Of a stretch of DNA of 64,000 bases, positions 13,329 to 42,127 are shown in pieces. The notes under the pieces were generated by a model, which searched no databases, was not told where the DNA came from, and was given only the letters and a program-made list of their open reading frames with translations. The DNA is from an uncultured Eubacteriales bacterium (lineage in GTDB: Bacteria; Actinomycetota; Coriobacteriia; Anaerosomatales; CAVRZR01), in the NCBI GenBank assembly GCA_964354215.1, contig CAYGYT010000001.1, positions 11,199 to 75,198 of the forward strand. Direction: 5' to 3'. Each line of letters starts with the position of its first letter. Within the stretch, counting starts at the first letter, position 1. A program made the translations under genes and the position numbers.

Positions 13329-13473
13329 GCGCAGTGGGATTCCCAGGGCGTGCCCGACAGTGTAGCACCGGCCCACGCCTCTGGACTGCCACGATGCGAG
13401 GGGTGTGCCGACAGGGCGTGGCCCCGTTTGGGGTCTAGCACCCGTATACTTGCCGCATGCCGAGGAGCCCGCG

Positions 13474-14439
13474 ATGAACGTCCAGGCCCTCGCCGCGTCG
13501 CTCGACTCGGCGATACGGACGCTCGCTCGCCTCGGCGGCGTGCTCGAGATAGCGCTCGTGCTCGTGGCGGCCGCACTCCTGATCGTCTCGCTCGTCGGCT
13601 CGCTCGCTTCGCGACGACGCGTGGTGCTCGGTATCGCGGCCGCAGTGCTTCTGGCCGGCGAGCTGCTGCTCGTATGGTTCCACTGGCGGGTCTGGAGCCT
13701 CGCGATCGTCGTCGATCCGGCGTCGGGGCAGACCGTCGGGCGCATCGCCGTCCCGCTGTGGGTGGAGTCCGAGAAGCTCTACGTGTGGGCGCTCATCGTG
13801 GCGCTGATGGGTCTCGCGGCACGTGAGGCTCGCGACGAGCTCCTCCCAGGAATCGGCGCGATCGTGGCGGCACTCGTGCTCGGCGCCGTCCTGTGGGGTC
13901 GTCCGTTCACTCACCCGCTGCCGTCGTTCTTCGGCCAGTACGCGGGCTACGTACAGGCGATGGCGTCGGGAGTGCCCCAGGCTGCGCAGTCGGCGTTCGA
14001 GGGGATCCAGGGTTCGCGGCAGTACTACTACAACACGTGGTACATGTGGGTCCATCCGCCGTTGCTCTTCTTCAGCTACGGCGCGTTCGCCGTCTCGTTC
14101 GTTGCGACCCTTCTCGCCGTCGTCCGTAGACACTCCTCCTACGAACGGCTCGCGTACCACTGGGCGCGCTTGGGCTATCTACCGCTCACCGCGGGCATGC
14201 TCCTCGGCTTTCCGTGGGCGATCCTCGCCTGGAGCGGGCAGTCGTGGTGGTGGTCGGGCAAGGTCAACATGTCGATCATGATGTGGCTGCTCTACACGGC
14301 CTACCTGCACGGACGTCTGTACCTGCGTCGGCGCGGCATGTGGCGCTGGGTGCTCGCACTGTCATTGCTCTCGTTCGCGATCCTCGTGTTGACGTACCTC
14401 GCCACGTACGTGGTCCCGGGGGCGCACAGCTATGCGTGA
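13474..14439 (+). CDS. CcsA/ResC-family haem-handling membrane protein with a divergent W-rich signature
   Basis: VHPPLLFFSYGAF, W-rich loop WAILAWSGQSWWWSGKVN and YTAYLHGR. GAGGAG RBS before ATG 13474. Confidence 0.7.
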   Translation: MNVQALAASLDSAIRTLARLGGVLEIALVLVAAALLIVSLVGSLASRRRVVLGIAAAVLLAGELLLVWFHWRVWSLAIVVDPASGQTVGRIAVPLWVESEKLYVWALIVALMGLAAREARDELLPGIGAIVAALVLGAVLWGRPFTHPLPSFFGQYAGYVQAMASGVPQAAQSAFEGIQGSRQYYYNTWYMWVHPPLLFFSYGAFAVSFVATLLAVVRRHSSYERLAYHWARLGYLPLTAGMLLGFPWAILAWSGQSWWWSGKVNMSIMMWLLYTAYLHGRLYLRRRGMWRWVLALSLLSFAILVLTYLATYVVPGAHSYA

Positions 14440-14445
14440 CGCGAC

Positions 14446-15189
14446 ATGATGACCGAGATCAGACAGAGGACGTGGGATTTCGCGCTCACGGTGATAACCG
14501 TCCTGCTGCTCGGGTCGCTCGGCGTGCAGTCGTTCATCGGAACGCTCTACTCATGGTGGGCCCAGCGGACGATTCCCGGATGGGAACAGACGGGGTACGC
14601 CGGCTTCGTACAGACGATGAACGCCCTCGCAGCTCCCCAGCTCGTGGCGCTCATCGTCGTGATGGGGCTCTGCGTACCGAAGCGCCTGTTCGAGCGCCGC
14701 GTACTGGCCGGAGTGTCCCTGGCGATGCTGTGCGCCGGTGTGGCAGTGTGGGCGGTGTTCGACAGCGTGGCAGCAGCGCTCGGCGCCTACCTCTCGCTCG
14801 CCGCCCTCATTCAAGTGGCGGTGGTGGCGCTTACGGTGGCCGGCGCACGCTCGCCCTCCTATCTCACCGAAGGACGCCTCACCAAGGTCGGCTCCGGGCT
14901 GCTTCACCTCGGCTTCATCATGTTCTGCTTCGTGGTCGCAGAGCTGCAGCGCTCGCGGTTCATGCTCCCCGCGTTCGCGCTCGCGGCACTCGCCATACTT
15001 GCCGGTACGGCGCTCTCGTTTTGGGCGGGGCGCGTCGCCTACGGCCCTACGCGGCCGCAGCCGTTCGCGGCGGTTGCGGAGGAGCCCGGACCGACGGGCG
15101 AGGACACCGAGGATCTCGCGGACGATGTGCTAGAGGTCGCGGACCATCGCAGCGACGAAGGAGGAGGCGAGCTCGACGAGCTCGGGTGA
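14446..15189 (+). CDS. Polytopic membrane protein of unknown function with acidic C-terminal tail
   Basis: Six or so hydrophobic helices, starts 6 nt after the CcsA-like gene, no family recognised. Confidence 0.6.
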   Translation: MMTEIRQRTWDFALTVITVLLLGSLGVQSFIGTLYSWWAQRTIPGWEQTGYAGFVQTMNALAAPQLVALIVVMGLCVPKRLFERRVLAGVSLAMLCAGVAVWAVFDSVAAALGAYLSLAALIQVAVVALTVAGARSPSYLTEGRLTKVGSGLLHLGFIMFCFVVAELQRSRFMLPAFALAALAILAGTALSFWAGRVAYGPTRPQPFAAVAEEPGPTGEDTEDLADDVLEVADHRSDEGGGELDELG

Positions 15190-16872: not shown

Positions 16873-17037
16873 GGACCCTCCCAGTCCCGAGGCGTTGCTT
16901 GGACAGCCGCTGTGCGGCGCGCCTTAAGACAGCTGCCCCGCTTCGTGCATCATACCGCGAGACAACGTGGGGTCGGGCGCACGCGCCCGGTGCTGCGAGT
17001 CGGGCTGGGCTGAGGCACCACCCGAGCAGCTGCGCGG

Positions 17038-17076
17038 TGGGAAACGAACGGGCGGCCTCCCGAAGGCGACCGCCCC
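17038..17076 (-). terminator. Rho-independent terminator after the 17083-17499 gene
   Basis: Minus strand reads GGGGCGGTCGCCTTCGGGAGGCCGCCC followed by GTTCGTTTCCC. Confidence 0.65.
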
Positions 17077-17082
17077 GTCGTA

Positions 17083-17499
17083 TCAGGAGCCGCCGTGGCA
17101 GCTCACGCACTCGTTCAACCGGTAGACCGAGTGCCGCACCTGTTGAACGGGGTCGCCACTGTGACAGCGGCAGCCCGGTATCGGGATCACGAAGCGCCTC
17201 TCGATCGGCGCAGCGGTCCCTTGCGTGACCATCCGGTCGAACGCGGCGCGGTACTCCGTCGCAGGGCGCTCCATGCCGCCGAACGAATAGAGGAGCGCTG
17301 CGATGCCGACGAGCGCGAGCACGGTGATACCGACCCCGATCGCGACGCGCTTGAGCACGCGTCTCCAGTTCCGTCCCGGCGACCCGAGCCCGGAGGCGGG
17401 AGGTTCCTCGGCCACAGTCGAGGTCTCGTCGGCGAGAGGTTCGCGCTCTTCAACCCGACCCGGCTCTTCGACGGCGGTCTCTGTCTCGCGCGCGCTCAT
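17083..17499 (-). CDS. Membrane-anchored small c-type cytochrome-like protein (one CxxCH plus one CxCH)
   Basis: Acidic N-terminus, TM helix VAIGVGITVLALVGIAALLY, and C-terminal GCRCH (17161-17172) and ECVSCH. Start trimmed to ATG 17499 to avoid overlap with the upstream gene. Confidence 0.65.
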   Translation of the reverse strand: MSARETETAVEEPGRVEEREPLADETSTVAEEPPASGLGSPGRNWRRVLKRVAIGVGITVLALVGIAALLYSFGGMERPATEYRAAFDRMVTQGTAAPIERRFVIPIPGCRCHSGDPVQQVRHSVYRLNECVSCHGGS

Positions 17500-17537
17500 G
17501 GCTACGCCACCGCTCCCAGAATCAACATCCGGTGCGA

Positions 17538-17924
17538 CTACCCGTGGATGAGCTGGGGCAGACAGCGGGTGCACACCCACGTGGACGTGCCCCGAGTCCT
17601 GACGGGCAGCAGTGGACGGTCATCTTCTGAAGCCCCGCAGTTGAAACACGCCTGCGGGATGTAGGTCTTGGGCTGCTCAGCGACGTGCTCCTCCACGGCG
17701 TTGTGGTCGAACGGAACCGCCTCGCGTGTCTCTACGGTGAGCGCACCGGTCGGGCAGACGCCCAAGCAGAAGCCCGCTCCGTCGCAGAGCTCCTCTCGAA
17801 CCACGCGAGCCTTGCCGTCGATGATCTGGATCGCGCCCTCGGCGCACGGGCTCACGCACACTCCGCACCCGTTGCAGAGCTCCTCGTCGATACGGACGAT
17901 CTGTCTTGTGACTGTCGTTGACAT
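17538..17924 (-). CDS. 4Fe-4S dicluster ferredoxin-domain protein with Cys-rich C-terminal extension
   Basis: CNGCGVCVSPCAEGAI and CDGAGFCLGVCPTGAL cluster motifs, followed by CFNCG...CTRC. Confidence 0.85.
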   Translation of the reverse strand: MSTTVTRQIVRIDEELCNGCGVCVSPCAEGAIQIIDGKARVVREELCDGAGFCLGVCPTGALTVETREAVPFDHNAVEEHVAEQPKTYIPQACFNCGASEDDRPLLPVRTRGTSTWVCTRCLPQLIHG

Positions 17925-17963
17925 CGTTCTTCCTCCTCTTCTCGGCGGTATCGCCGTGGTGCC

Positions 17964-18443
17964 CTAGTCGTGTGTGGATCGGTCCGCGCCGTCACCGCCG
18001 ACAGCGGCCGGCTCGGCCGCCTGGCGCGCCGACGCCCTCTCGGCCGCGCGCTTGTGGCGCTTCGTCTCCATCAGGTGCTTGATGCCGTCGATCGCGTGTC
18101 CCCGGAACATGGAGCGGCGCCCGGAGTAGCGCATCATCTGCCGCTGCCACTCGCGCTCTTGACTGCGATAGCAGTGGACGTCGCAGTTGGCGCAGAACGG
18201 CTTGGGGTCCTTGGGACAGAACGCGCGGCGGTTCTCCCCGTACGCGAGGTGCGCCTCGCACTCCGCGCACAGGACCGGCGGCCTTCGGCCGTAGACGCCG
18301 AGAACGGCCGCGTCCGTGTGGATCGGCGCACGCTCCACACCCCGGTGCAACCCCTGGCAGTAGATCTCCACGAAGTCGCCGAGGGTGCGCGTGTCCTTCG
18401 CGACCGTTCGGTCGCTCATGCGCTCCTCGAACTTCTGATTCAT
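17964..18443 (-). CDS. YgbA_NO (nitrous-oxide-stimulated promoter) family Cys-rich protein
   Basis: DFVEIYCQGLH...LCAECEAHLAYGENRRAFCPKDPKPFCANCDVHCY...MMRYSGRRMF-like pattern. Start set at ATG 18443 (MNQKFE). Confidence 0.7.
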   Translation of the reverse strand: MNQKFEERMSDRTVAKDTRTLGDFVEIYCQGLHRGVERAPIHTDAAVLGVYGRRPPVLCAECEAHLAYGENRRAFCPKDPKPFCANCDVHCYRSQEREWQRQMMRYSGRRSMFRGHAIDGIKHLMETKRHKRAAERASARQAAEPAAVGGDGADRSTHD

Positions 18444-18515
18444 CCGTCCAGCCCTCGCCTGCGATCGTGTCCACATCCACCAGACCGACCCTACGTGCTC
18501 GCGGGAGCGCTATCC

Positions 18516-18529
18516 TTGACGAGCGTCAA
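18516..18529. promoter_or_regulatory. FNR/CRP-type inverted repeat TTGAC-N4-GTCAA
   Basis: Perfect TTGACgagcGTCAA in the divergent promoter region between the Crp/Fnr gene and the YgbA_NO-ferredoxin-cytochrome operon, centred about 79 nt upstream of ATG 18443. Confidence 0.55.
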
Positions 18530-18593
18530 TTCCGACGAAGAATCCTGACCGATCGAGTCGGGTTGCCGATCGGATGAGGAGGAGCCGGGCACG

Positions 18594-19304
18594 ATGGCGG
18601 GACCGGTCCGAGACGATGTCTACGCGGCTCTGCGCGCCTGCCGGCTCTGGCGCGCAGCGGCCGACGAGACCGTCCGCGCTCTGGCAGGGCGCGCGCTCGT
18701 CTCCGATGTCTCCCGCGGGACGCAGCTCGCGACCGAGGGTGACTCCGCCGAGAAGTTCGGTGTGGTCGTCGCGGGGAAGGCCCGGGTCTTCTCGCTTGCG
18801 CCGGACGGGCGTCGCGTAGCGCTCGAAACCGTCGAGCGCGGCGAGCCGCTCGCGGCGCTCGCGGCCCTATCCGGCGGCCGCTACCCGTTCAACATCGACG
18901 CAGTAACACCGGCGACTGTAGCGTGGCTACCCCGGCAAGCGCTTCTCGATCTCGTGGAGCGGGAACCCCAGGTTGCGCGCGACCTCATCGCCGATCTGGC
19001 CGGTCGAGTCGTGCACTTCACGAGCGTCGTGCAGACGCTCACGCTCGACGTTCCCTCTCGCCTGGCTCGCTACCTCTTCCAGCGAGCCCTCCAGACCGGG
19101 CAGACTACGTCGAGTGGACTCCTCGTCGATCTCGGCATGCGCAAGAACGAGCTTGCCGAGGCGCTCGGCACCGTGCCCGAGACGCTCTCGCGGGCGTTCG
19201 CACGCCTCAAGGGCGACGGGATCATTGCCGTTCGCGGCAGTGACGTGACGATCCTCGACATGCGAGCGCTCGCGGCGCTCGGCAGCGGCTACGAGGACGC
19301 CTGA
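18594..19304 (+). CDS. Crp/Fnr-family transcriptional regulator
   Basis: cNMP-binding-like N-terminal domain and C-terminal HTH NELAEALGTVPETLSRAFARLKGDGII. No N-terminal Cys cluster seen. Confidence 0.88.
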   Translation: MAGPVRDDVYAALRACRLWRAAADETVRALAGRALVSDVSRGTQLATEGDSAEKFGVVVAGKARVFSLAPDGRRVALETVERGEPLAALAALSGGRYPFNIDAVTPATVAWLPRQALLDLVEREPQVARDLIADLAGRVVHFTSVVQTLTLDVPSRLARYLFQRALQTGQTTSSGLLVDLGMRKNELAEALGTVPETLSRAFARLKGDGIIAVRGSDVTILDMRALAALGSGYEDA

Positions 19305-20101
19305 CCCTCGACGGACTGCGCGTTGTCGCCGGACTGGGTCGCCCCGCCGACCGAACCACCGGGCTTCTCCGCAGCGCGCCGCTTCGCGACAGCCGCCTTC
19401 GCACCCTTGTCGAGGGTGCTGGCCATCAGGAAGCCAGCCAGCAGGATCGCGGAGGCGACCATCTCCGCGGGGTAGAGTCCCACCGACTGCCCCGCTCGCG
19501 CCATGGAACCCGCACCGGCGATCACGATCGTCCCGACTGCGATGAGCACGTTGGCCCACATGCGGTAAGCGAACTCCCGCTTTCGCGAGAAGCGCCAGAC
19601 GCTGATGACAGCTCCGCCGAGGAGGAAGACGGTCCCGGGAACATTGAAGAAGAGCGACATGAAACGCGGGTACGAGAAGCTCTCGCCGAGCGCTTGGCCG
19701 CCCACCGTGATGCCGGGGACGAGCTTCTCGGCCTTGAGCGTGACGGTGAGTGTGCCGAGGAGGAAGACCAGGAACCAGCCGAGGTTCATTCCGAGGTACA
19801 CGTCGGGGCCGAAGCGTTTGCGCGCAATGAGGTAGTGGGAGCCCAGCCCGAGAAAACCGACGAGCGACGCCGCGAGCACGATGTAGATCCGATACACGAA
19901 CGGGTTCCACGAGCCCGAGTACTCGGACCACGCCTCCATGACAGCGGCCACCGCGTAGAACAGCAGGCCGACCGTCCAAGCGAGCTGATGGGGCTTCCGA
20001 CGCTGGAGCCACTGCGCGAACACGAGGTACGTGAACACGAACCCGAGAATGGCCGTCGCCGCGGGCCACCACCATCCCGACCAGAACTCAGCGCTGCTCA
20101 C
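19289..20101 (-). CDS. Polytopic membrane protein, unknown function
   Basis: Seven or so helices. The likely GTG start at 20101 is preceded by GGGGAGG. Confidence 0.6.
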   Translation of the reverse strand: MSSAEFWSGWWWPAATAILGFVFTYLVFAQWLQRRKPHQLAWTVGLLFYAVAAVMEAWSEYSGSWNPFVYRIYIVLAASLVGFLGLGSHYLIARKRFGPDVYLGMNLGWFLVFLLGTLTVTLKAEKLVPGITVGGQALGESFSYPRFMSLFFNVPGTVFLLGGAVISVWRFSRKREFAYRMWANVLIAVGTIVIAGAGSMARAGQSVGLYPAEMVASAILLAGFLMASTLDKGAKAAVAKRRAAEKPGGSVGGATQSGDNAQSVEGQASS

Positions 20102-20167
20102 GCCGCCTCCCCTCGATCGGTGCCCGCTGAACGGTGGTGCGCAGCACAACCTCCGACACGCGAGGCG

Positions 20168-36610: not shown

Positions 36611-37966
36611 CTATGCCTTCTTGCGGCGCGAGCGCAAGAAGGCGACGAGCCCGATCACGAGAGCGCCGAGAACTGCAACGGCCAAGACGGCCGGCAGCGC
36701 GCTGTTCCACTTCTCGGTCGCAGAATCGGACGTCTTTTCGCCTTCAACGGGCGCCGCTGAAGACCGCACGACCTGCTCGGCTGTGGCCATCTGGGTGGTT
36801 GGGTTCTCGACCTCGGCCTTCTCGGCAAGTTCCTCAGGCAGCGAGCGGTAGTTGAGGGTCGCAACGATCGTGGCCGAGGGCTGGTCGGGCATCGTGATGG
36901 TGTAGGTCTGGGTAACGGACGCCTGGGGCGGGATCCTGTCATCGGAGTGGACGCCGGTGGCCTCCCAGAGCTCCACCGGGTGCCGCCCCTTGTCGTCCTT
37001 CAGCACGGTTCCGAACTGGCGGGTACCGAGCGCCGTCTCCTTGCCGTCCGGCCCTGCTGCGGTCACGTCCAGCCACATCTGGCGCACCTCGGTAAGCCCG
37101 GTGGGCAAGTAGTGTCCCGCGCCCACGTTGGTGATCGTCACGGTCACCAACGCCGAGGCGCCCGGGGCAAGGATCTCCGGGGCATCGAGGCGCATCTCGG
37201 CTGCAGCCTTGAGGTTTGCGGTCGCGCGCTCCGCGTCACCCTGGCCCACGTTGCCCCCCACGAAGGTCATCGTGTAGATGTGCTCGCGCTGAGGGCCGCC
37301 TGCTGCGGCCTTGCCGGGATTGGGCTTCGTCACGCCGGGGCCCGGGGTCATGTGGCAGTCCTGGCAGACGACTCCAGCCTTCGCGTACGGGCCGTTCTTC
37401 CATTCTGAGTACGAGGACTCGAGGTGCATGCCGTTCACGGGATGGTCGACGTTGTGGCACGCGCCGCAGAACTCAGCCGACTCGTGGAACGCCGAGTAGG
37501 CGGTCGCGTGGACCGGAGAGACGGCGTCTTTGAGCTGGGCCCTCTTGGTTCCATCGAGTTTCAGGATCTGCGAGGTGTTGGACGGCGGCATAGTAGTACC
37601 TACCACTTGATGACAGAAGTCGCAGAAGACGCCCTGCGCCGATTGAGGAGAGAGCTTGCCGGTCGCGGCCTCTCCCGACATCACGGCCACGGGACCGTGG
37701 CAGGTGTCGCAGAATGCGCCCAGCTTCCCGTCGGTGGCCTTGTTCGCCTCGGCCTTCTTGGCCTGGTACGCCGGGTCGGCGAGTGCCTTGGCGTGCATCG
37801 TGACACTCCACTGGCTCAACAGTCCCGCGTGACAGCCGCAGGCCTCAGCGGGCTTGAAGGCCCTGGACGGCGCGTTTGGTAGTGCGCCAGCCCCCTGGAC
37901 CGCGCTCAGACAACCGATCAGAACAACCGCACTCGCTATGCACAGCTGAAACCGAATCGGCCTCAT
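36611..37966 (-). CDS. Multihaem c-type cytochrome, signal peptide plus C-terminal TM anchor (4 CxxCH and 1 CxCH)
   Basis: ACGCH (37829-37840), CDTCH, CDFCH, CGACH and CQDCH. C-terminal LPAVLAVAVLGALVIGLVAFLRSRRKK. Start set at MRPIRF (37966). Confidence 0.85.
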   Translation of the reverse strand: MRPIRFQLCIASAVVLIGCLSAVQGAGALPNAPSRAFKPAEACGCHAGLLSQWSVTMHAKALADPAYQAKKAEANKATDGKLGAFCDTCHGPVAVMSGEAATGKLSPQSAQGVFCDFCHQVVGTTMPPSNTSQILKLDGTKRAQLKDAVSPVHATAYSAFHESAEFCGACHNVDHPVNGMHLESSYSEWKNGPYAKAGVVCQDCHMTPGPGVTKPNPGKAAAGGPQREHIYTMTFVGGNVGQGDAERATANLKAAAEMRLDAPEILAPGASALVTVTITNVGAGHYLPTGLTEVRQMWLDVTAAGPDGKETALGTRQFGTVLKDDKGRHPVELWEATGVHSDDRIPPQASVTQTYTITMPDQPSATIVATLNYRSLPEELAEKAEVENPTTQMATAEQVVRSSAAPVEGEKTSDSATEKWNSALPAVLAVAVLGALVIGLVAFLRSRRKKA

Positions 37967-38190
37967 GTCTGTGCCAGACGAGGCACGCTCGGTGATTCCG
38001 ATCTTCTCAGACGCCGTCGTAGTGCGCGCACGGCACCAGCGCGCGAAGGGTATGACTGTCACCGTCCGTCCTTTCCGAACGCGGACCCGATGTCACTCAT
38101 GGTACACGGTGCGCAAATCCGCAGGAAGGGCGCTTGCCTCGCCGCAAACTCCGGGTTCACGCCCGCCCCGACCACGTCATCCGCTGACGG

Positions 38191-40113
38191 CTAGGGGGGT
38201 GCCAACCAGACGTCGAAGGCCAGGTCGCCGGAGAGTGGAAGAGCCAATCGCGCACGTCCGTCCTCGTTCGTCGCGGGGAGGGCCGCGTCCGAGGCGGTCA
38301 GTCGCGCATTCACGCGCGATATCCTCCAACCAGGTGGAGGCGCGACCGTGACCGTCATGGGGATGTCCTCGAGGTCCGCTTGTCTCGCGACGAAGAGCCG
38401 GTAGGACGGGGCGGCGCTCGGCGCCCGTGGCGAGCCCTCTCCGTTCGGGACGGACGACGAAGGATCGCCGGTGGCACCGCCGGTTCTCCACGCGACGGGG
38501 ACGTGGCTGACCACCGTCTCCGTGTGGGTCCGTCCTCGAAGGACCGAGAACGAGCGGCCCTCGGTCGGGAGCCCGGACTCAACGGTGCCGTGGCCTCCGC
38601 CGTCCGACGCGAACACCGTGCCCGGTGCCCGGGAGACGCGCAGCCAGTCGTCGAAGGAGTTGCGCCCGGCCAGCGCATAGGGCCCCCTGTTCGAGTACCC
38701 GAGGACAAGCGTCGACTCCGCCGAGCGGTCGGGCATGAGAGCGACCTCGTAGTCGATGGTCTTCTTCATGGCCATGTTGATCTTGCTGCCGAGGTTCATC
38801 GCGTTGGAGATGACGAGGAGATCCGTTGCGCCGCCAGACGGAGCGATCCGCCCCGACCACCCCAGAGCGACGACCGCCTCCTCCGCTCCGGGATCCGTGA
38901 AGTAGAGCTGCACGTGCTTGGCGTCGGCGGCCTTCGCCAGGGCCTGCGCTGCCTTGGCCAGTTCCCCCGGGCTAGCGCCGAGCACCCGCCGCTCGAGTTC
39001 CCCAGCGAGTGCAACGAGTACGTCCTTCCTGCCCTCGCCCCCCTTCACCATCGTGTAGTACAGCAGACGAGTGAGCAGGTTCTCGGGCGTGAACGTCTCG
39101 GAGAAGCTCTGCACCCCTATCGGGCCGAGAGCCTCCAAGAGGTACTGCATCGCGACCGTGTCCACGACGACGACGCCGTCGATCGGAGGTTGATCGTAGT
39201 CCCGCCAGAACCCGAGCATAGCGCGCGCACTCGTGGGGAAGTCGATCCACCAGTTCGCTTCTCGGAGTCCGAACTCGCTGGTCAGGGCTGCTTTGGGAGG
39301 TCGCGTGAAACCATCAGGCACGTAGGGCATCAGGAAGACGTCCCGATAGGGCGGGTCCGGCAGCGTGTAGATGTCTCGCCACTTGTCGAGTCTGACACCC
39401 GTCGGACCCACCTCGATGATGCCGTAGCTGCCGGAGAACCCCCCCGTGGGTCTCAGTTCCGCGCCGTTCTGGGAGACGACCAGGATTCGGTGCGTGGACG
39501 ACAGCAGGTACCTCTCCAGCGGCAACAGAGCGCGGAATCGGTCCAGGGACGGGGCGGCGCGTCGGAGTGCAGCCTTGGCCGAACGGACCTGCTTGGTCAG
39601 TGGCGGCACCAGACCGCGCTCGTCCAGGGCCGCGACCCGGTCGGCCACGTCGACGAGCGCGGCGAGTGCGGTTTCGACGCGCCGGCGTCTGTTCTCGAGC
39701 AACGAGCTGAGGCCGCTCGTCGGGCTTGCTCCCGCTCTATTGGCGGGCACCTGCTGAAGTGCCGCCGCCAACTCGGCGCCGGCGGTCGAGGCGCGCAGCC
39801 CGAGCACCACGAGCGCCTGCGCCGTGGAATACTGACGCCCAACCAGAGGGACCGCGCCCACCGCTTCGCCGAGCCAGTCGGGCCCGAGCATCCCTTGTGC
39901 GCGAGAGAAGCTCCGCTTGGCGGCGCCGAATTGCGACACCGCTCCGGTCGCATCGAGAGACGCGAGACGTGTGGCAGCGGCCGCGGCCTCGGCCTTCCCC
40001 TTCTTCGCCACGCTCGCGAGACCGGCTGCCCACCCGTATGCCCCCGCCACGAGCACGATCACGAGCGCGGCAACGGCGGTCACGATGATGGCCGAGCGGA
40101 TCGGACGCTTCAT
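38191..40113 (-). CDS. DUF4012-domain single-pass membrane protein
   Basis: N-terminal TM AIIVTAVAALVIVLVAGAYGW. The ILVVSQNGAELRPTGGFSGSYGIIEV block is typical of DUF4012. Confidence 0.7.
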   Translation of the reverse strand: MKRPIRSAIIVTAVAALVIVLVAGAYGWAAGLASVAKKGKAEAAAAATRLASLDATGAVSQFGAAKRSFSRAQGMLGPDWLGEAVGAVPLVGRQYSTAQALVVLGLRASTAGAELAAALQQVPANRAGASPTSGLSSLLENRRRRVETALAALVDVADRVAALDERGLVPPLTKQVRSAKAALRRAAPSLDRFRALLPLERYLLSSTHRILVVSQNGAELRPTGGFSGSYGIIEVGPTGVRLDKWRDIYTLPDPPYRDVFLMPYVPDGFTRPPKAALTSEFGLREANWWIDFPTSARAMLGFWRDYDQPPIDGVVVVDTVAMQYLLEALGPIGVQSFSETFTPENLLTRLLYYTMVKGGEGRKDVLVALAGELERRVLGASPGELAKAAQALAKAADAKHVQLYFTDPGAEEAVVALGWSGRIAPSGGATDLLVISNAMNLGSKINMAMKKTIDYEVALMPDRSAESTLVLGYSNRGPYALAGRNSFDDWLRVSRAPGTVFASDGGGHGTVESGLPTEGRSFSVLRGRTHTETVVSHVPVAWRTGGATGDPSSSVPNGEGSPRAPSAAPSYRLFVARQADLEDIPMTVTVAPPPGWRISRVNARLTASDAALPATNEDGRARLALPLSGDLAFDVWLAPP

Positions 40114-40242
40114 GTTCCTAGGGTACAGCCGCCTGCTCCTCGTCGCGCTCATCCGCTCGACACCGGGAGCCCCTGACACCGCGGGAGCGACGCCGGGGGC
40201 AGAAGAGCTAGGCGCCCCCGCACCCTGGATGACAGCGGGACA

Positions 40243-41673
40243 CTACCTCGTGCGGTCACCGCCGAAGTACTCGGGGACCGTCCGCACCTTCCTGCGGCGT
40301 CGACGCCGGACAAGGGCGAAGACGACTCCCGCAACAATCAACGCGCCGAGCAGCGCCGCGGCTCCTGCAAGCAGCTGCGAGGTGCTCACGCTCGCTCCGC
40401 GCTCGGCCCGACGTTTCGCCTGTTTCGACCCGTAGACCACCTTCTGAGCGCGTGCCATCTCGGTCACGGGGTTCTCGACTCGCGCCTTCTTTGCCATCTC
40501 CTCCGGGAACGACTTGTAGTTCAGGACTGCTTCTACCGCTACGCCGCCCTCGGTTGTCATCGGGAACGCATACGTGGAGTGCACGGCGTTCTTGGGCGGG
40601 ATTCGGTCGTCTGACTGAACAGCCACCGCGTCCCAGAGCTGGACGGGGTAGCGTCCCTCGGCGTCTCGGTACACCGTCCCGAACTGACGACGGCCCAGCA
40701 GTCGCTTCGCCCCATCGGGAGAGACCGCGTTCACCTCGAGCCACATCTGGCGGATCTCCGCGACTCCCGCCGGGATGTAGTGTCCGGCCCCGACGTTCGC
40801 GACGGTGACCTTCACCGATCCGGTCGTTCCGGGCTCGACCACGTCGGACGCCTCGAGCGAGACCCGTGCGGCAGCTTTGAGGTTCATGCGCGCCCGGGGG
40901 GCGTTGCCCAGGGGCACGTTCGCGCCGACGAAGTTCATGAGGTAGACGAAGTTCCGGATCGGTCCCATGGGGGCGGCCCGGCCAACGGTCGGCCCTCCGC
41001 CTGGCCGAGCGCTCATGTGGCAGTCCTGACACACAATGCCGAGGGCCGCGTAGGGCCCCGCTTTCCACTCGGGGTAGGTCGTGTCGAGCATGACCCCCGT
41101 GGTGGGGTGCTTGAGTGTATGGCACGCGCCACAGAACTCCGCGCTCGTGTGGAACTTGGAGAAGGCGTTCTTGTGAGTCGGCGCCGACGAATCGGGGTAC
41201 TGGGCTCGCTTCGTGCCGTTGGCCCGCAGCTTCTGAGAGGCGTTTCGTATCGGCTTCTTCGTGCCGGTGACCTGGTGGCAGAAGTCGCAGGTCACTCCCT
41301 CCTTGCTCTGAGGAGAGAGCTTCGACTCGCCTTTCGTCTGCCCCGCCATAGTTCCGATAGGCGTGTGGCAGGTGTCGCAGAACGTACCGAGGCTCCCGCC
41401 CGTGGCTTTGTTGGCCTCTTGCTTCTTGACCACGTACACGGGGTCGTAGAGAGCCTTCGCGTGCATCGACAGAGCCCATTCGTCACGCTGCTGCCCATGG
41501 CACGTGCAGGAGGTGGCGGGCTGGAAGCGTTTCGCAGGGATGTCTGGCAGCGCCTCGGCCTGCTGCGGCAGCATGCAGAGGAGTACCGAGGCGATCGCAC
41601 ACGCGGAGACGACCGCGCCGGCTCGAATCGCTCGCAGAGTGGGGCGGGGAGGTGTGCTGGTGGTTCGTGCCAT
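40243..41673 (-). CDS. Multihaem c-type cytochrome, paralogue of 36611-37966 (4 CxxCH and 1 CxCH, C-terminal anchor)
   Basis: SCTCH (41497-41508), CDTCH, CDFCH, CGACH and CQDCH. C-terminal LLAGAAALLGALIVAGVVFALVRRRRRRK. GGAGG RBS before ATG 41673. Confidence 0.85.
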   Translation of the reverse strand: MARTTSTPPRPTLRAIRAGAVVSACAIASVLLCMLPQQAEALPDIPAKRFQPATSCTCHGQQRDEWALSMHAKALYDPVYVVKKQEANKATGGSLGTFCDTCHTPIGTMAGQTKGESKLSPQSKEGVTCDFCHQVTGTKKPIRNASQKLRANGTKRAQYPDSSAPTHKNAFSKFHTSAEFCGACHTLKHPTTGVMLDTTYPEWKAGPYAALGIVCQDCHMSARPGGGPTVGRAAPMGPIRNFVYLMNFVGANVPLGNAPRARMNLKAAARVSLEASDVVEPGTTGSVKVTVANVGAGHYIPAGVAEIRQMWLEVNAVSPDGAKRLLGRRQFGTVYRDAEGRYPVQLWDAVAVQSDDRIPPKNAVHSTYAFPMTTEGGVAVEAVLNYKSFPEEMAKKARVENPVTEMARAQKVVYGSKQAKRRAERGASVSTSQLLAGAAALLGALIVAGVVFALVRRRRRRKVRTVPEYFGGDRTR

Positions 41674-41750
41674 CCGTCGCCTCCAAGCGCCGGTCGCCCG
41701 TTTGCCCCACAAACAGGCTACCTGAAGTCCACCCCGTCGTCCTACTGCAC

Positions 41751-41780
41751 GAAGACCCCAGCGGTACCGCCGGGGTCTTC
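41751..41780 (-). terminator. Strong hairpin between the small anchored protein gene and cytochrome paralogue 2 (no clear U-tract)
   Basis: gaagacccc / ggggtcttc 9-bp stem with a 12-nt loop. Confidence 0.35.
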
Positions 41781-41806
41781 GGATTCTCGACTCGGGCTGA
41801 GAGACG

Positions 41807-42127
41807 TCAGGCAGGGGCTCCGGTCTTTCGGCTGGCCAGAACACCCCAGACGACGATCGCGACGATCGCGACGAGCGACGAGACTGCCCAAAACAGGTTC
41901 AGCAGGTCGCCCTCCTTGCTCCACGGCGTCGTGGCCTTCGCCTCGGCCGCAGTCGCGTCGGGCGGAGCCTCGGGCAACACGATGAGCGGGGCCACGACCA
42001 CGACTTTCTTCGCAGCCGTGGTGGCCGCGGTCGTCGTGGGCGTGGCCGTAGCGGCAAACCCTGCTGCAGGCAGCGTGAAGGTCAGGAGCACGAGCAGGCA
42101 CGCGAGTGTGAGCAGTACGCGCTTCAT
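41807..42127 (-). CDS. Small secreted protein with Thr/Ala-rich spacer and C-terminal TM anchor
   Basis: Signal peptide MKRVLLTLACLLVLLTFTLPAAGFA, C-terminal LFWAVSSLVAIVAIVVWGVLA, and GGAGGT RBS. Confidence 0.65.
   Translation of the reverse strand: MKRVLLTLACLLVLLTFTLPAAGFAATATPTTTAATTAAKKVVVVAPLIVLPEAPPDATAAEAKATTPWSKEGDLLNLFWAVSSLVAIVAIVVWGVLASRKTGAPA

Follow-up and report, generated by a model that had tools for sequence, protein, structure and literature searches.

An HcpR-like regulator and a candidate nitrosative-stress operon with a putative haem-binding small protein in an uncultured member of the Coriobacteriia

What does a Crp/Fnr-family regulator control when it is encoded divergently from three small genes, the last of which specifies a membrane protein with two cytochrome-like motifs, and to which signal does it respond? 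These questions are raised by one locus in the window, that is, in the whole 64-kb stretch of DNA that was analysed here. The preliminary description of this DNA proposed a three-gene operon under the control of an FNR box and possibly an electron-transfer unit that responds to redox state or NO. All sequence features listed in that description are present, except for the class that was given to the ferredoxin. The locus consists of the following features, ordered from the regulator gene through the operon:

18594-19304, plus strand: HcpR-like Crp/Fnr-family regulator of 236 aa (Pfam cNMP_binding and HTH_Crp_2)
18516-18529, between the Crp/Fnr gene and the minus-strand operon: candidate operator TTGACGAGCGTCAA, TTGAC-N4-GTCAA (sequence read and conservation)
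17964-18476, minus strand: Cys-rich protein of the YgbA_NO family, first gene of the operon (Pfam PF11756, 1.3e-20)
17538-17924, minus strand: ferredoxin of 128 aa (Pfam Fer4 families)
17083-17499, minus strand: small membrane-anchored protein of 138 aa from its ATG, founding member of an unannotated family

The gene order ygbA, ferredoxin, hcp and small gene was found in 22 of 30 related Coriobacteriia genomes, and in locus L002 the gene for a hybrid cluster protein, hcp (Prismane), lies between the ferredoxin gene and the small gene. The regulator gene is divergent from this four-gene set in L002 and in another 17 genome loci, a count that covers the loci where the regulator and hcp both lie within the fetched sequence. 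Since the operon contains hcp in the relatives, it can be assigned to the HcpR-type nitrosative-stress operons, and the NO or nitrosative-stress context that had been suspected is thereby substantiated. In the genome studied here, hcp is gone from the locus and absent from the 64-kb window, so the hcp-operon label derives from the relatives. The three minus-strand genes had been described as an operon in the preliminary description, but the loss of hcp from it had been missed. We consider it likely that the locus is the local form of an HcpR-type nitrosative-stress operon conserved across the Anaerosomatales-like (OPB41), deep-subsurface Coriobacteriia, a reading that includes class II activation by the regulator and a putative haem-binding small protein. 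The gene that follows the small gene encodes a membrane metallophosphoesterase in some of the relatives.

The product of the first gene matches the YgbA_NO family over positions 4-104 of a profile of 106, with 74.2 bits against a cut-off of 25; the NCBIfam equivalog model NF007714 gives 87.1 bits and falls just under its cut-off of 88. The true start of this protein is probably the ATG at 18443 (M12), which gives 159 aa, and homologues align from residue 12. In 26 orthologues, its Cys and His residues are conserved. Enterobacteria have YgbA, a Cys-rich protein, among the members of their NO regulons. In Salmonella, ygbA and hcp are co-induced as genes of the NO regulon (PMC2884951).

The ferredoxin had been taken for a 2x[4Fe-4S] protein, which does not agree with its second motif. 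While the first motif is CxxCxxCxxxC, the second, CDGAGFCLGVCP (CxxAxxCxxxCP), has three Cys and an Ala in place of the second Cys. The C-terminal ribbon, CxxC-x21-CxxC, corresponds to the tail reported earlier, and all of these Cys motifs, including the three-Cys form of the second, are invariant in 27 orthologues. The ferredoxin gene is located immediately upstream of hcp in at least 18 relatives. Judging from the gene order, the ferredoxin sits where FrdX-type ferredoxins, as electron donors of Hcp, sit in hcp operons, which is a likeness by position.

The small protein has an acidic N-terminus, one transmembrane helix at residues 52-70 and a C-terminal module of the form PGCRCH-x9-H-x7-CVSCH. 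The codons of its two motifs, both obtained by direct reading, are found at:

17161-17172, minus strand: C110-R-C112-H113, contracted CxCH motif
17095-17109, minus strand: C131-V-S-C134-H135, canonical CxxCH motif, three residues from the C-terminus

Two longer versions of this gene were rejected. For the 165-aa product that would start at the GTG at 17580, an exact-sequence look-up came back empty, and the nearest homologue has the 138-aa ATG form; the upstream extension 'MG[VL]H..' overlaps, in another frame, the highly conserved C-terminus of the ferredoxin.

The small protein has no match in Pfam or NCBIfam. Homologue searches yielded 20 and then 69 homologues, and the family amounts to about 64 clusters, seen in the Coriobacteriia clade of this locus only, with the small gene always placed right after hcp or after the ferredoxin gene. 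The only invariant residues are those of PGCxCH…H…CxxCH. Motifs are present in 83 of the 88 retrieved sequences, all with CxCH, and the other five lack both motifs; in true members of the family, CxCH is never replaced by CxxCH. The second site is CxxCH in 78 and Cx4CH in four of the 88 sequences, and the sole exception among the motif-bearing sequences is P0013, in which Gly replaces the second Cys of CxxCH. The three invariant His are H113, H123 and H135, the first and last of which directly follow the Cys pairs in every motif-bearing sequence, and Met76 is not conserved across the family. Of 51 members, 50 are predicted by the positive-inside rule to be N-in/C-out, and in a second paralogue group the N-terminus resembles a signal peptide. 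A first AF2 model built from 21 sequences was poor (pLDDT 67), while a second from 81 sequences reached a pLDDT above 93 for residues 50-130 and placed CxxCH within a predicted helix at 128-135; a Foldseek search of the PDB with the second model found no similar solved fold.

In the best reading of these features, the small protein is probably a mini c-type cytochrome that is exported and has two haem sites, the first contracted and the second canonical. The preliminary description had pointed out that its CxCH-then-CxxCH arrangement echoes two cytochromes encoded in the window, and hhalign against this pentahaem family supports the resemblance, in that the motifs align to haem sites 1 and 2 (probability 50%, E 1.7e-4). 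The best match in a profile search of the PDB, the decahaem cytochrome OmcA, is non-significant (E 0.12) and aligns CxCH to CxxCH, and alignments of this kind, which centre on the motifs, are weak and owe part of their signal to the Cys and His letters themselves.

Alternatively, the Cys/His module could hold a metal (Zn, Fe or Cu) or form redox disulfides, and the small protein would then act outside the cytoplasm as a chaperone or as a sensor of metals or thiols. Such a function would agree with the lack of recognition by any cytochrome family model, with the confident and compact fold that AF2 gives without a cofactor, with the lack of a structural match to known cytochromes and with the presence of only three invariant His for two putative haems. 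Moreover, haem binding at a contracted CXCH has a single known experimental precedent, the CKCH site of Kuenenia, which binds haem according to Ferousi 2019 as cited in PMC7096707. However, a His directly after both Cys pairs in all motif-bearing members speaks against it, and the second site alternates between Cx2CH and Cx4CH, as haem sites typically can, whereas a metal knuckle would tolerate such a change poorly. The placement of CxxCH in a predicted helix, and not in a zinc knuckle, likewise counts for haem. Furthermore, the module is predicted to lie outside the membrane, where haem attachment occurs, and c-type cytochromes in which the same CxCH occupies a canonical haem position are numerous in the lineage. 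We therefore regard a metal or disulfide module as possible but rather unlikely. If the small protein is a mini cytochrome, the three invariant His imply that one of its two putative haems may be open or weakly ligated, and such a haem may bind NO on the external side of the membrane. It counts against this reading that no obvious route would carry electrons between a haem protein outside the cytoplasm and a cytoplasmic Hcp or ferredoxin.

The cytochrome genes in question, and a gene for a haem lyase, are located elsewhere in the window:

36611-38062 and 40243-41844, both minus strand: genes of the pentahaem cytochrome family, about 20 kb from the operon (motif count)
13405-14439: gene of a CcsA-type haem lyase (PF01578, 4e-23), about 2.6 kb from the operon

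Each of the two cytochromes contains one CxCH (CGCH in one, CTCH in the other) and four CxxCH motifs, and the CxCH is kept in 115 of 120 homologues of this family. The CcsA-like protein and a 247-aa partner are encoded in conserved synteny, and no ResB/CcsB-type partner of CcsA was identified. That the small protein and the cytochromes have a special maturation requirement in common, as proposed earlier, is a speculation. In its fullest form, the small proteins would be dihaem mini cytochromes of a new class, exported and anchored to the membrane, with an obligatory CXCH at the first site; at the outer membrane face, they would act as NO-binding or NO-scavenging partners of cytoplasmic YgbA, ferredoxin and Hcp. 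The divergent CcsA-like protein, together with its 247-aa partner, would be responsible for the maturation of the CXCH sites both here and in the pentahaem cytochromes. Taken as a whole, this proposal is doubtful.

The hcp gene has been lost in at least four separate clades, that of this genome included, and locus L018 retains an hcp remnant of 41 aa. By the distribution of these layouts, hcp is deleted independently here and in at least three other lineages; the hcp-less genomes besides this one include L003, L011, L019 and L025. That hcp has been lost repeatedly while the other genes were kept points to a role of YgbA, the ferredoxin and the small protein that is independent of Hcp. The opposite could be argued, namely that the genes left behind after the loss of hcp are a decaying and non-functional remnant, given that the catalytic gene is gone and that L008 and L020 have eroded further. 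Yet the three ORFs, the regulator and a perfect box are all intact in this genome, the invariant residues of each family are all retained, and a layout that lacks hcp and is otherwise intact recurs in at least four independent lineages, an argument that the three genes of the operon are of value even without a linked hcp. A decaying remnant is thus improbable, and a functional operon without hcp is the reading that we retain.

The regulator has the Crp/Fnr architecture, a cNMP-type sensor domain followed by a C-terminal HTH, with matches to cNMP_binding (PF00027, 3.3e-14) and HTH_Crp_2 (PF13545, 1e-16). Its NCBIfam matches to FtrB, FixK and Fnr are all far under the cut-offs, the Fnr model giving 35 bits against a cut-off of 228. 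As the preliminary description had noted, there is no N-terminal Cys cluster: the only Cys is C16, which is invariant, and neither the sequence nor the alignment of orthologues contains an Fnr-type Fe-S Cys cluster. Thus, the regulator is not an Fnr in the strict sense. Nor do the orthologues share a conserved His or Cys cluster that would account for sensing. In searches against PDB sequences, the regulator matched DNR of P. aeruginosa (3dkw, 1.2e-14), and there was no match to the solved HcpR of P. gingivalis at E <= 0.001. Its best 120 homologues all come from the same Coriobacteriia clade, and relatives are annotated by JGI as 'dissimilatory nitrate respiration regulator', that is, as DNR-like.

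More can be learned from the recognition helix, GTVPETLSRA, in an HTH that is invariant in 23 orthologues. The HcpR proteins that have Ser or Pro in place of R180 of CRP and keep E181 and R185 recognise the motif wyTTGACnnnnGTCAArw, and their targets are hcp and a ferredoxin (PMC1274295). The P-E-T-L-S-R segment of the regulator follows this published residue rule for TTGAC-type sites, and the box matches the motif. The regulator and its box hence match the HcpR type in operator sequence and recognition-helix residues. The preliminary description had left the signal of the regulator as unknown, a statement that can be revised, as the characterised members of the HcpR type respond to NO. In C. 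difficile, for example, hcpR activates frdX-hcp upon exposure to NO (PMC12915319). By analogy with HcpR and DNR, we infer that the regulator studied here is NO-responsive.

The box itself is the single match to TTGAC-N4-GTCAA in the 64-kb window at up to one mismatch. In Markov-1 simulations, 0.015 exact matches are expected per 64 kb, and with up to one mismatch 0.8-0.9 chance matches are expected per window. The box is found once per locus in 24 related loci, which together with its rarity confirms that the repeat at 18516-18529 is real. When the window is aligned with these loci, 25 sequences in all, conservation of the half-sites is at least 90%, whereas the spacer and flanks drift. The regulator gene and the box are found together in 22 loci, and in L014 the box is located directly upstream of hcp. 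The box is missing in L008, where the regulator is truncated, and in L020, where it is absent, both being loci with further erosion. These patterns support the palindrome as a conserved Crp/Fnr-type operator common to the divergent regulator and the operon. With up to two mismatches, the whole window contains 13 matches as compared to 15.8 expected, and neither the cytochrome genes nor ccsA are preceded by any of these. The window thus provides no evidence for a wider regulon, and the co-regulation of the cytochrome locus and ccsA that had been envisaged is not borne out.

The box could also be bound by a global Fnr-type O2 or redox regulator encoded elsewhere, in which case the operon would be induced anaerobically and would have no relation to the Crp/Fnr gene beside it. 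The sequence TTGAC-N4-GTCAA is indeed near the general consensus of Fnr, FixK and DNR, and NO is a putative effector of the adjacent regulator. Against this stand the co-occurrence of the regulator and the box in 22 loci and their joint loss in L008 and L020, the fit of the P-E...R recognition helix to the half-site and the overlap of the box with the regulator's own promoter. In addition, these organisms are strict anaerobes, in which switching by O2 makes little sense (PMC9686372). We give this possibility little credence and retain the adjacent HcpR-like protein as the candidate regulator of the operon.

The position of the box relative to the promoters gives an indication of how it may act. 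The elements concerned are:

18488-18493, minus strand: -10-like hexamer TAGGGT (TAnnnT) of the operon promoter, 22 nt downstream of the box
18538-18543, plus strand: -10-like hexamer AAGAAT of the regulator promoter (promoter scan)
17042-17075, minus strand: possible intrinsic terminator, a GC-rich hairpin GGGCGGUCGCCUUCGGGAGGCCGCCC followed by GUUCGUUU (fold of 17000-17090)

In the alignment of the 25 upstream regions, most have a TAnnnT hexamer 22 nt from the box, and L022 and L029 have it 23 nt away. The operon promoter contains no separate -35, and the centre of the box lies about 41.5 bp upstream of the operon start, as placed from the sequence. This geometry fits a class II Crp/Fnr activator site, and from a -10 without a -35 and a site near -41.5 we infer class II activation by the regulator. 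The regulator promoter scores 9 of 12 matches in the scan as TTGACG-16-AAGAAT, with the left half of the box serving as the -35 (TTGACG), and ATTCTT is found at the position of the regulator -10 in many relatives. The overlap of the box with the -35 of the regulator's own promoter implies autoregulation. The box was also considered as a plain -35 of the operon and rejected, as the -10 is located 22 nt beyond the palindrome. That the palindrome is a chance repeat or two back-to-back -35 hexamers of divergent promoters is very improbable, for while TTGAC is the sigma-70 -35 core, the plus-strand scan uses TTGACG as a -35 and nearly one match per window is expected by chance at up to one mismatch, exact matches are far rarer, both half-sites are conserved in 25 sequences with a free spacer, and the operon -10 is too far away.

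The hairpin at 17042-17075 begins 8 nt past the stop codon of the small gene and may tentatively be taken as the intrinsic terminator that closes the operon; it fails the strict T-tract rule of the scan, and the folded stretch as a whole has a z-score of no more than -1.1. A search with Rfam found no RNA element in the region from 15 to 21 kb.

In the mechanism that we propose, a dimer of the regulator would bind TTGAC-N4-GTCAA and sense NO without an Fe-S Cys cluster. It would activate the operon in class II fashion from the site near -41.5, and it would regulate its own gene through the same site, which covers the -35 of the divergent promoter. The ancestral operon would have consisted of ygbA, the ferredoxin gene, hcp and the small gene, from which hcp appears to have been cleanly deleted in this genome, leaving the other three genes intact and conserved. 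The small protein would be anchored by its one helix, with the C-terminal module outside the cell membrane, and haem c would be covalently bound at the contracted CXCH and the canonical CXXCH.

The combined logic of an HcpR box, a ferredoxin and hcp is already known. The operon would extend the HcpR regulon to the Coriobacteriia, and it links ygbA, an orphan gene of NO regulons, physically to hcp. New is the family of the gene that always closes the operon, which is clade-restricted and unannotated and has an invariant CxCH…H…CxxCH module predicted to lie outside the membrane. With a family of small, easily expressed proteins that have an obligatory CXCH, the maturation and function of CXCH could be directly tested, and the pentahaem cytochromes that keep CXCH widen the material for such tests.

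The closest known system is the HcpR regulon, whose FNR-like type has been described from Geobacter, Desulfuromonas, Desulfotalea and cyanobacteria (Rodionov et al. 2005, PMC1274295). Both have, here as judged from the relatives, a divergent Crp/Fnr regulator beside an operon of ferredoxin and hcp, an identical operator consensus, TTGACnnnnGTCAA, a Pro at the position of CRP R180 and a Glu at 181, and a set of NO-stress genes. The locus differs in that it belongs to the Actinomycetota (Coriobacteriia), starts with ygbA and ends with an exported CxCH/CxxCH protein, lacks hcp in this genome, and encodes a ferredoxin with a Cys4 ribbon tail and a second motif of three Cys. The haem-based NO sensors of denitrifiers, DNR and NnrR, also share features with the regulator, namely a Crp/Fnr fold that has no Fe-S Cys cluster, a TTGA-N6-TCAA box similar to that of Fnr and, for DNR (3dkw), the sequence match at 1.2e-14. 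However, there are no denitrification genes near the regulator, and its target is an hcp-type detoxification operon. Cultured relatives reduce neither nitrate nor nitrite (PMC9686372).

In the NO regulon of Salmonella, a YgbA-family protein and Hcp are likewise co-regulated by NO (PMC2884951), but the regulator there is an Rrf2-type repressor as compared to the putative Crp/Fnr activator here, the genes are scattered, and the reductase is Hcr and not a ferredoxin. The CKCH tetrahaem cytochrome of Kuenenia stuttgartiensis, in the account of Ferousi et al. 2019 (J Biol Chem 294:16953) cited in PMC7096707, resembles the small protein in having CxCH beside CxxCH, in being exported and in coming from an organism that handles N-oxides. 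The two have no detectable sequence relationship, and the small protein differs in that it carries a two-motif module of about 30 residues on a membrane anchor, with haem binding predicted, and in that CxCH is invariant through the whole family. The class II cytochromes c, or cytochromes c', are periplasmic NO-binding proteins with a haem site at the extreme C-terminus. Although the small protein has two motifs where cytochrome c' has one, and neither its four-helix bundle nor sequence similarity to it, the two would share, as a functional analogy only, a C-terminal haem site, a possibly missing sixth ligand and a connection to NO stress.

The palindromic box, the regulator gene, the three divergent genes and the CRCH and CVSCH motifs of the preliminary description were all recovered where it had placed them in the window, which has a G+C content of 65.7%:

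18516-18529: box TTGACGAGCGTCAA (direct sequence match)
18594-19304, + strand: Crp/Fnr-family regulator, 236 aa (cNMP_binding 3e-14, HTH_Crp_2 1e-16)
17964-18476, - strand: YgbA_NO protein gene (PF11756, 1.3e-20)
17538-17924, - strand: ferredoxin gene, 128 aa (ORF)
17083-17499, - strand: small protein gene, 138 aa (no Pfam or NCBIfam match)
17161-17172, - strand: CRCH codons of the small protein
17095-17109, - strand: CVSCH codons of the small protein
17042-17075: GC-rich hairpin with a weak U-tract past the small gene stop (tentative; not called by the strict scan)

The YgbA protein probably starts at M12 (18443), as judged from its homologues. A 286-aa multi-pass membrane protein without family match (19289-20149, - strand) is convergent with the regulator gene, and its position is kept in most related loci at 60-84% identity.

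A match to the box with at most one mismatch is expected by chance about 0.8-0.9 times per window and an exact match 0.015 times, and we regard comparative conservation as the decisive sequence evidence that the box is more than a chance occurrence. The comparison covered 30 species-level genome loci retrieved via the small protein and two metagenome loci (L numbers below), all from Coriobacteriia or "Actinomycetota" MAGs of the OPB41/Anaerosomatales type. Wherever a locus includes the intergenic region between the regulator and ygbA, that region has one, and only one, TTGA[CT]-N4-[AG]TCAA, and over 25 distinct sequences both half-sites show at least 90% conservation, with variation in the 4-nt spacer and in the flanks. 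In most of these 25 sequences, a TAnnnT hexamer lies 22 nt past the box (23 nt in two loci), which puts the centre of the box about 41.5 bp ahead of the inferred start. We infer that the operon promoter has no -35 element of its own and that the box geometry is that of class II Crp/Fnr activation. On the other strand, a promoter scan identified TTGACG-16-AAGAAT for the regulator gene, with the left half-site serving as the -35 element, and ATTCTT recurs in the relatives at the predicted -10 place, which suggests that the regulator controls its own expression. The box is gone where the regulator is truncated (L008, 6893-7198, with just the C-terminal HTH part left) or missing (L020, with neither regulator nor box upstream of 7164). 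Both of these loci also lack hcp, the gene for the hybrid cluster protein, which suggests that the system has been eroded step by step in some lineages. In L014, a locus without ygbA, ferredoxin or an adjacent regulator, a box (TTGATCTGGGTCAA) is located immediately upstream of hcp (1066-1079).

To trace hcp, the window proteins and the Hcp of the related locus L002 were searched by tblastn against all loci. In L002, the regulator is followed by divergent genes for YgbA, ferredoxin, Prismane (Hcp, 539 aa) and the small protein. Among the 30 genomes, hcp is placed between the ferredoxin and small genes in 22, is absent in six (L003, L008, L011, L019, L020 and L025) and is cut to a 41-aa N-terminal remnant in one (L018, 7900-8022), the remaining locus being uninformative. 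The window itself contains no hcp at any position. Neighbour-joining on the concatenated sequences of regulator, ferredoxin and YgbA, run without bootstrap, gave a tree in which the loci without hcp are spread over at least four separate clades. L003, the sister of the window on this tree, also lacks hcp. This distribution indicates that the ancestral operon had hcp and has since lost it repeatedly, the window being one such case. The window keeps intact ygbA, the ferredoxin gene, the small gene, the regulator and the perfect box, together with all family-invariant residues. The three operon genes also stay intact across the lineages that lost hcp from the operon.

In 30/30 genomes, the small gene comes immediately after hcp, or after the ferredoxin gene where hcp is lost, and it often overlaps the preceding gene or starts within a few bases of it. 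In the window, the gaps are 39 nt between ygbA and the ferredoxin gene, with a GGAGGA Shine-Dalgarno sequence, and 38 nt between the ferredoxin and small genes. These distances and the gene linkage make co-transcription of the three genes likely. An in-frame GTG at 17580 (17500-17580, - strand), the equivalent of which is used by some database gene calls, would add 27 residues to the small ORF and overlap the ferredoxin 3' end; the apparent conservation of this segment probably just reflects the conserved ferredoxin C-terminus in the other frame. The ferredoxin had been described as a 2x[4Fe-4S] protein, of which the ferredoxin assignment stands but not the canonical cluster content, as its second motif CDGAGFCLGVCP has three cysteines. 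This CxxAxxCxxxCP motif (residues 47-58) is invariant in 27 orthologues and implies that the cluster is either of the [3Fe-4S] type or takes its fourth ligand from elsewhere, possibly the Cys4 tail. In several relatives, the interval from the small gene to the M28 peptidase gene holds a same-strand gene for a membrane-anchored, calcineurin-like metallophosphoesterase of 460-540 aa, which the window lacks:

L006, 8426-9847
L013, 8419-9807
L014, 3125-4543
L017, 8304-9740
L019, 8338-9963
L021, 7883-9388
L024, 8616-10142

The last gene of the operon represents a new family. A word-indexed search with the small protein gave 20 relatives, and an exhaustive profile search of 1.84 billion cluster representatives gave 69 at E <= 1e-3 (64 with the motifs, 5 without both); together the searches yielded 88 sequences, 83 of them with the motifs and none with a name or a Pfam domain. 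The sole invariant residues in an alignment of 81 sequences are P108, G109, C110, C112, H113, H123, C131, C134 and H135. At the first motif, CxxCH does not occur; the form is CxCH throughout (x = R, V, K, T, N, M, I, S or Q). The second motif has the CxxCH form, with Cx4CH as a variant in four sequences, and many members stop exactly at its histidine. Upstream of this Cys/His module is a hydrophobic helix, with on average 4.8 Lys/Arg in the 15 residues before it versus 1.3 after, and an N-in/C-out topology was predicted in 50/51 members. Five loci contain a second, tandem paralogue between hcp and the first copy (L009 7627-7977, L021 7037-7384, L024 8001-8108, L028 2447-2587 and L030 2160-2267), which combines a signal-peptide-like N-terminus with a long Ala/Pro/Glu/Ser-rich linker and the module IEIPGCxCHSxDP…H..YRMNQCxGCH. 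From the charge bias and the N-terminus of the paralogue, the module is predicted to be extracytoplasmic, that is, at the site of haem c attachment.

We lean towards the small protein being an exported mini c-type cytochrome, although the results on its fold and family give a mixed picture. An AF2 model built with a deep alignment has pLDDT >93 over residues 50-130 and places the CxxCH within a helix (128-135); Foldseek found no solved relative of this model. The top match in a PDB sequence-profile search, the decahaem cytochrome OmcA, was non-significant (E 0.12) and paired the CxCH with a CxxCH. With hhalign, at probability 50% and E 1.7e-4, the CxCH falls on the CxCH of the pentahaem family in the window and the CxxCH on the second haem site of that family. 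A CKCH site in a Kuenenia tetrahaem cytochrome is reported to bind haem (Ferousi 2019, as cited in PMC7096707). The main rival, a metal- or thiol-based module, appears less likely; the invariant histidine after each cysteine pair, the Cx2/Cx4 variability of the second motif and the helical CxxCH of the model speak against it. If the small protein is a cytochrome, one haem could be five-coordinate, because there are only three invariant histidines for two haems, and, given the NO-stress operon, one may speculate that it binds NO at the outer face of the membrane.

The preliminary description had also suggested a common maturation requirement for the small protein and two cytochromes about 20 kb away, based on their contracted motifs. 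The genes concerned are:

36611-38062 and 40243-41844, - strand: pentahaem-type cytochrome genes, each with 1 CxCH and 4 CxxCH
13405-14439, + strand: CcsA-type cytochrome c assembly protein gene (PF01578 4e-23), beyond the M28 peptidase gene
14446-15189, + strand: 247-aa multi-pass membrane partner without Pfam family

Only four ORFs in the window contain CxCH or CxxCH motifs, two of which are these cytochromes. They are paralogous and membrane-anchored, with a DUF4012 gene between them (38191-40179, - strand). Both have a contracted first haem site (CGCH, CTCH), and CxCH is retained in 115/120 of the closest homologues, all from Coriobacteriia. The Pfam Cytochrome_C554 alignment begins at about profile position 4-5, near the histidine of the CxCH, consistent with a contracted motif at a canonical haem position. 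In the window, neither the cytochrome genes nor the CcsA-like gene is preceded by a box with up to two mismatches. The 13 hits at this threshold (15.8 expected) are at chance level, leaving co-regulation without support. At least ten related genomes have the CcsA-type and 247-aa pair in the same position, in synteny with the hcp operon, but its recurrence does not show a functional link because the clade shares synteny over the entire neighbourhood. On shared maturation and regulation, the preliminary description went too far. In the CcsA-type protein, the Trp-rich motif (…AWSGQSWWWSGKVN…) seems divergent from the canonical WGxxWxWDxKE. The window showed no gene of the ResB/CcsB type. A dedicated CXCH lyase is hypothetical.

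The regulator contains a single cysteine and thus, as had been noted, lacks an N-terminal Cys cluster and is no Fe-S Fnr. The solved structures closest to it in sequence include those of M. tuberculosis Crp and P. aeruginosa DNR (1.2e-14), while the solved P. gingivalis HcpR is not among its PDB sequence matches at E <= 0.001. The best 120 database homologues all belong to the same clade, some labelled "dissimilatory nitrate respiration regulator" by JGI. HcpR is a Crp/Fnr regulator of hcp and the ferredoxin-like frdX, for which the motif wyTTGACnnnnGTCAArw was derived in Geobacter, Desulfuromonas, Desulfotalea and two cyanobacteria and linked to a change of CRP-R180 to Ser or Pro with E181 kept (Rodionov et al., PMC1274295). 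The recognition helix in the window, V-P-E-T-L-S-R, is invariant in 23 orthologues and agrees with this specificity rule. NO exposure of C. difficile leads to an hcpR-mediated activation of frdX-hcp of about 200-fold (PMC12915319), and P. gingivalis HcpR is described as sensing NO through haem (PMC12750200). In Salmonella, ygbA, which has no known function, and hcp are both NsrR-controlled genes of the NO regulon (PMC2884951). Cultured relatives are strictly anaerobic, have 17-18 multihaem cytochromes and do not respire nitrate or nitrite (PMC9686372), which fits a role in detoxification rather than respiration. The match to the known HcpR system and the NO response of its characterised members indicate that the locus is an HcpR-type nitrosative-stress operon. 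The preliminary description was right about a Crp/Fnr-controlled, NO-related unit but overlooked the hcp context and the HcpR identity. The window shares the kind of box and the specificity residues with the HcpR system but differs in lacking hcp and in having ygbA first. The regulation is of a known kind in a new taxon, and what is new is this taxon, ygbA as the first gene, the missing hcp and the last gene.
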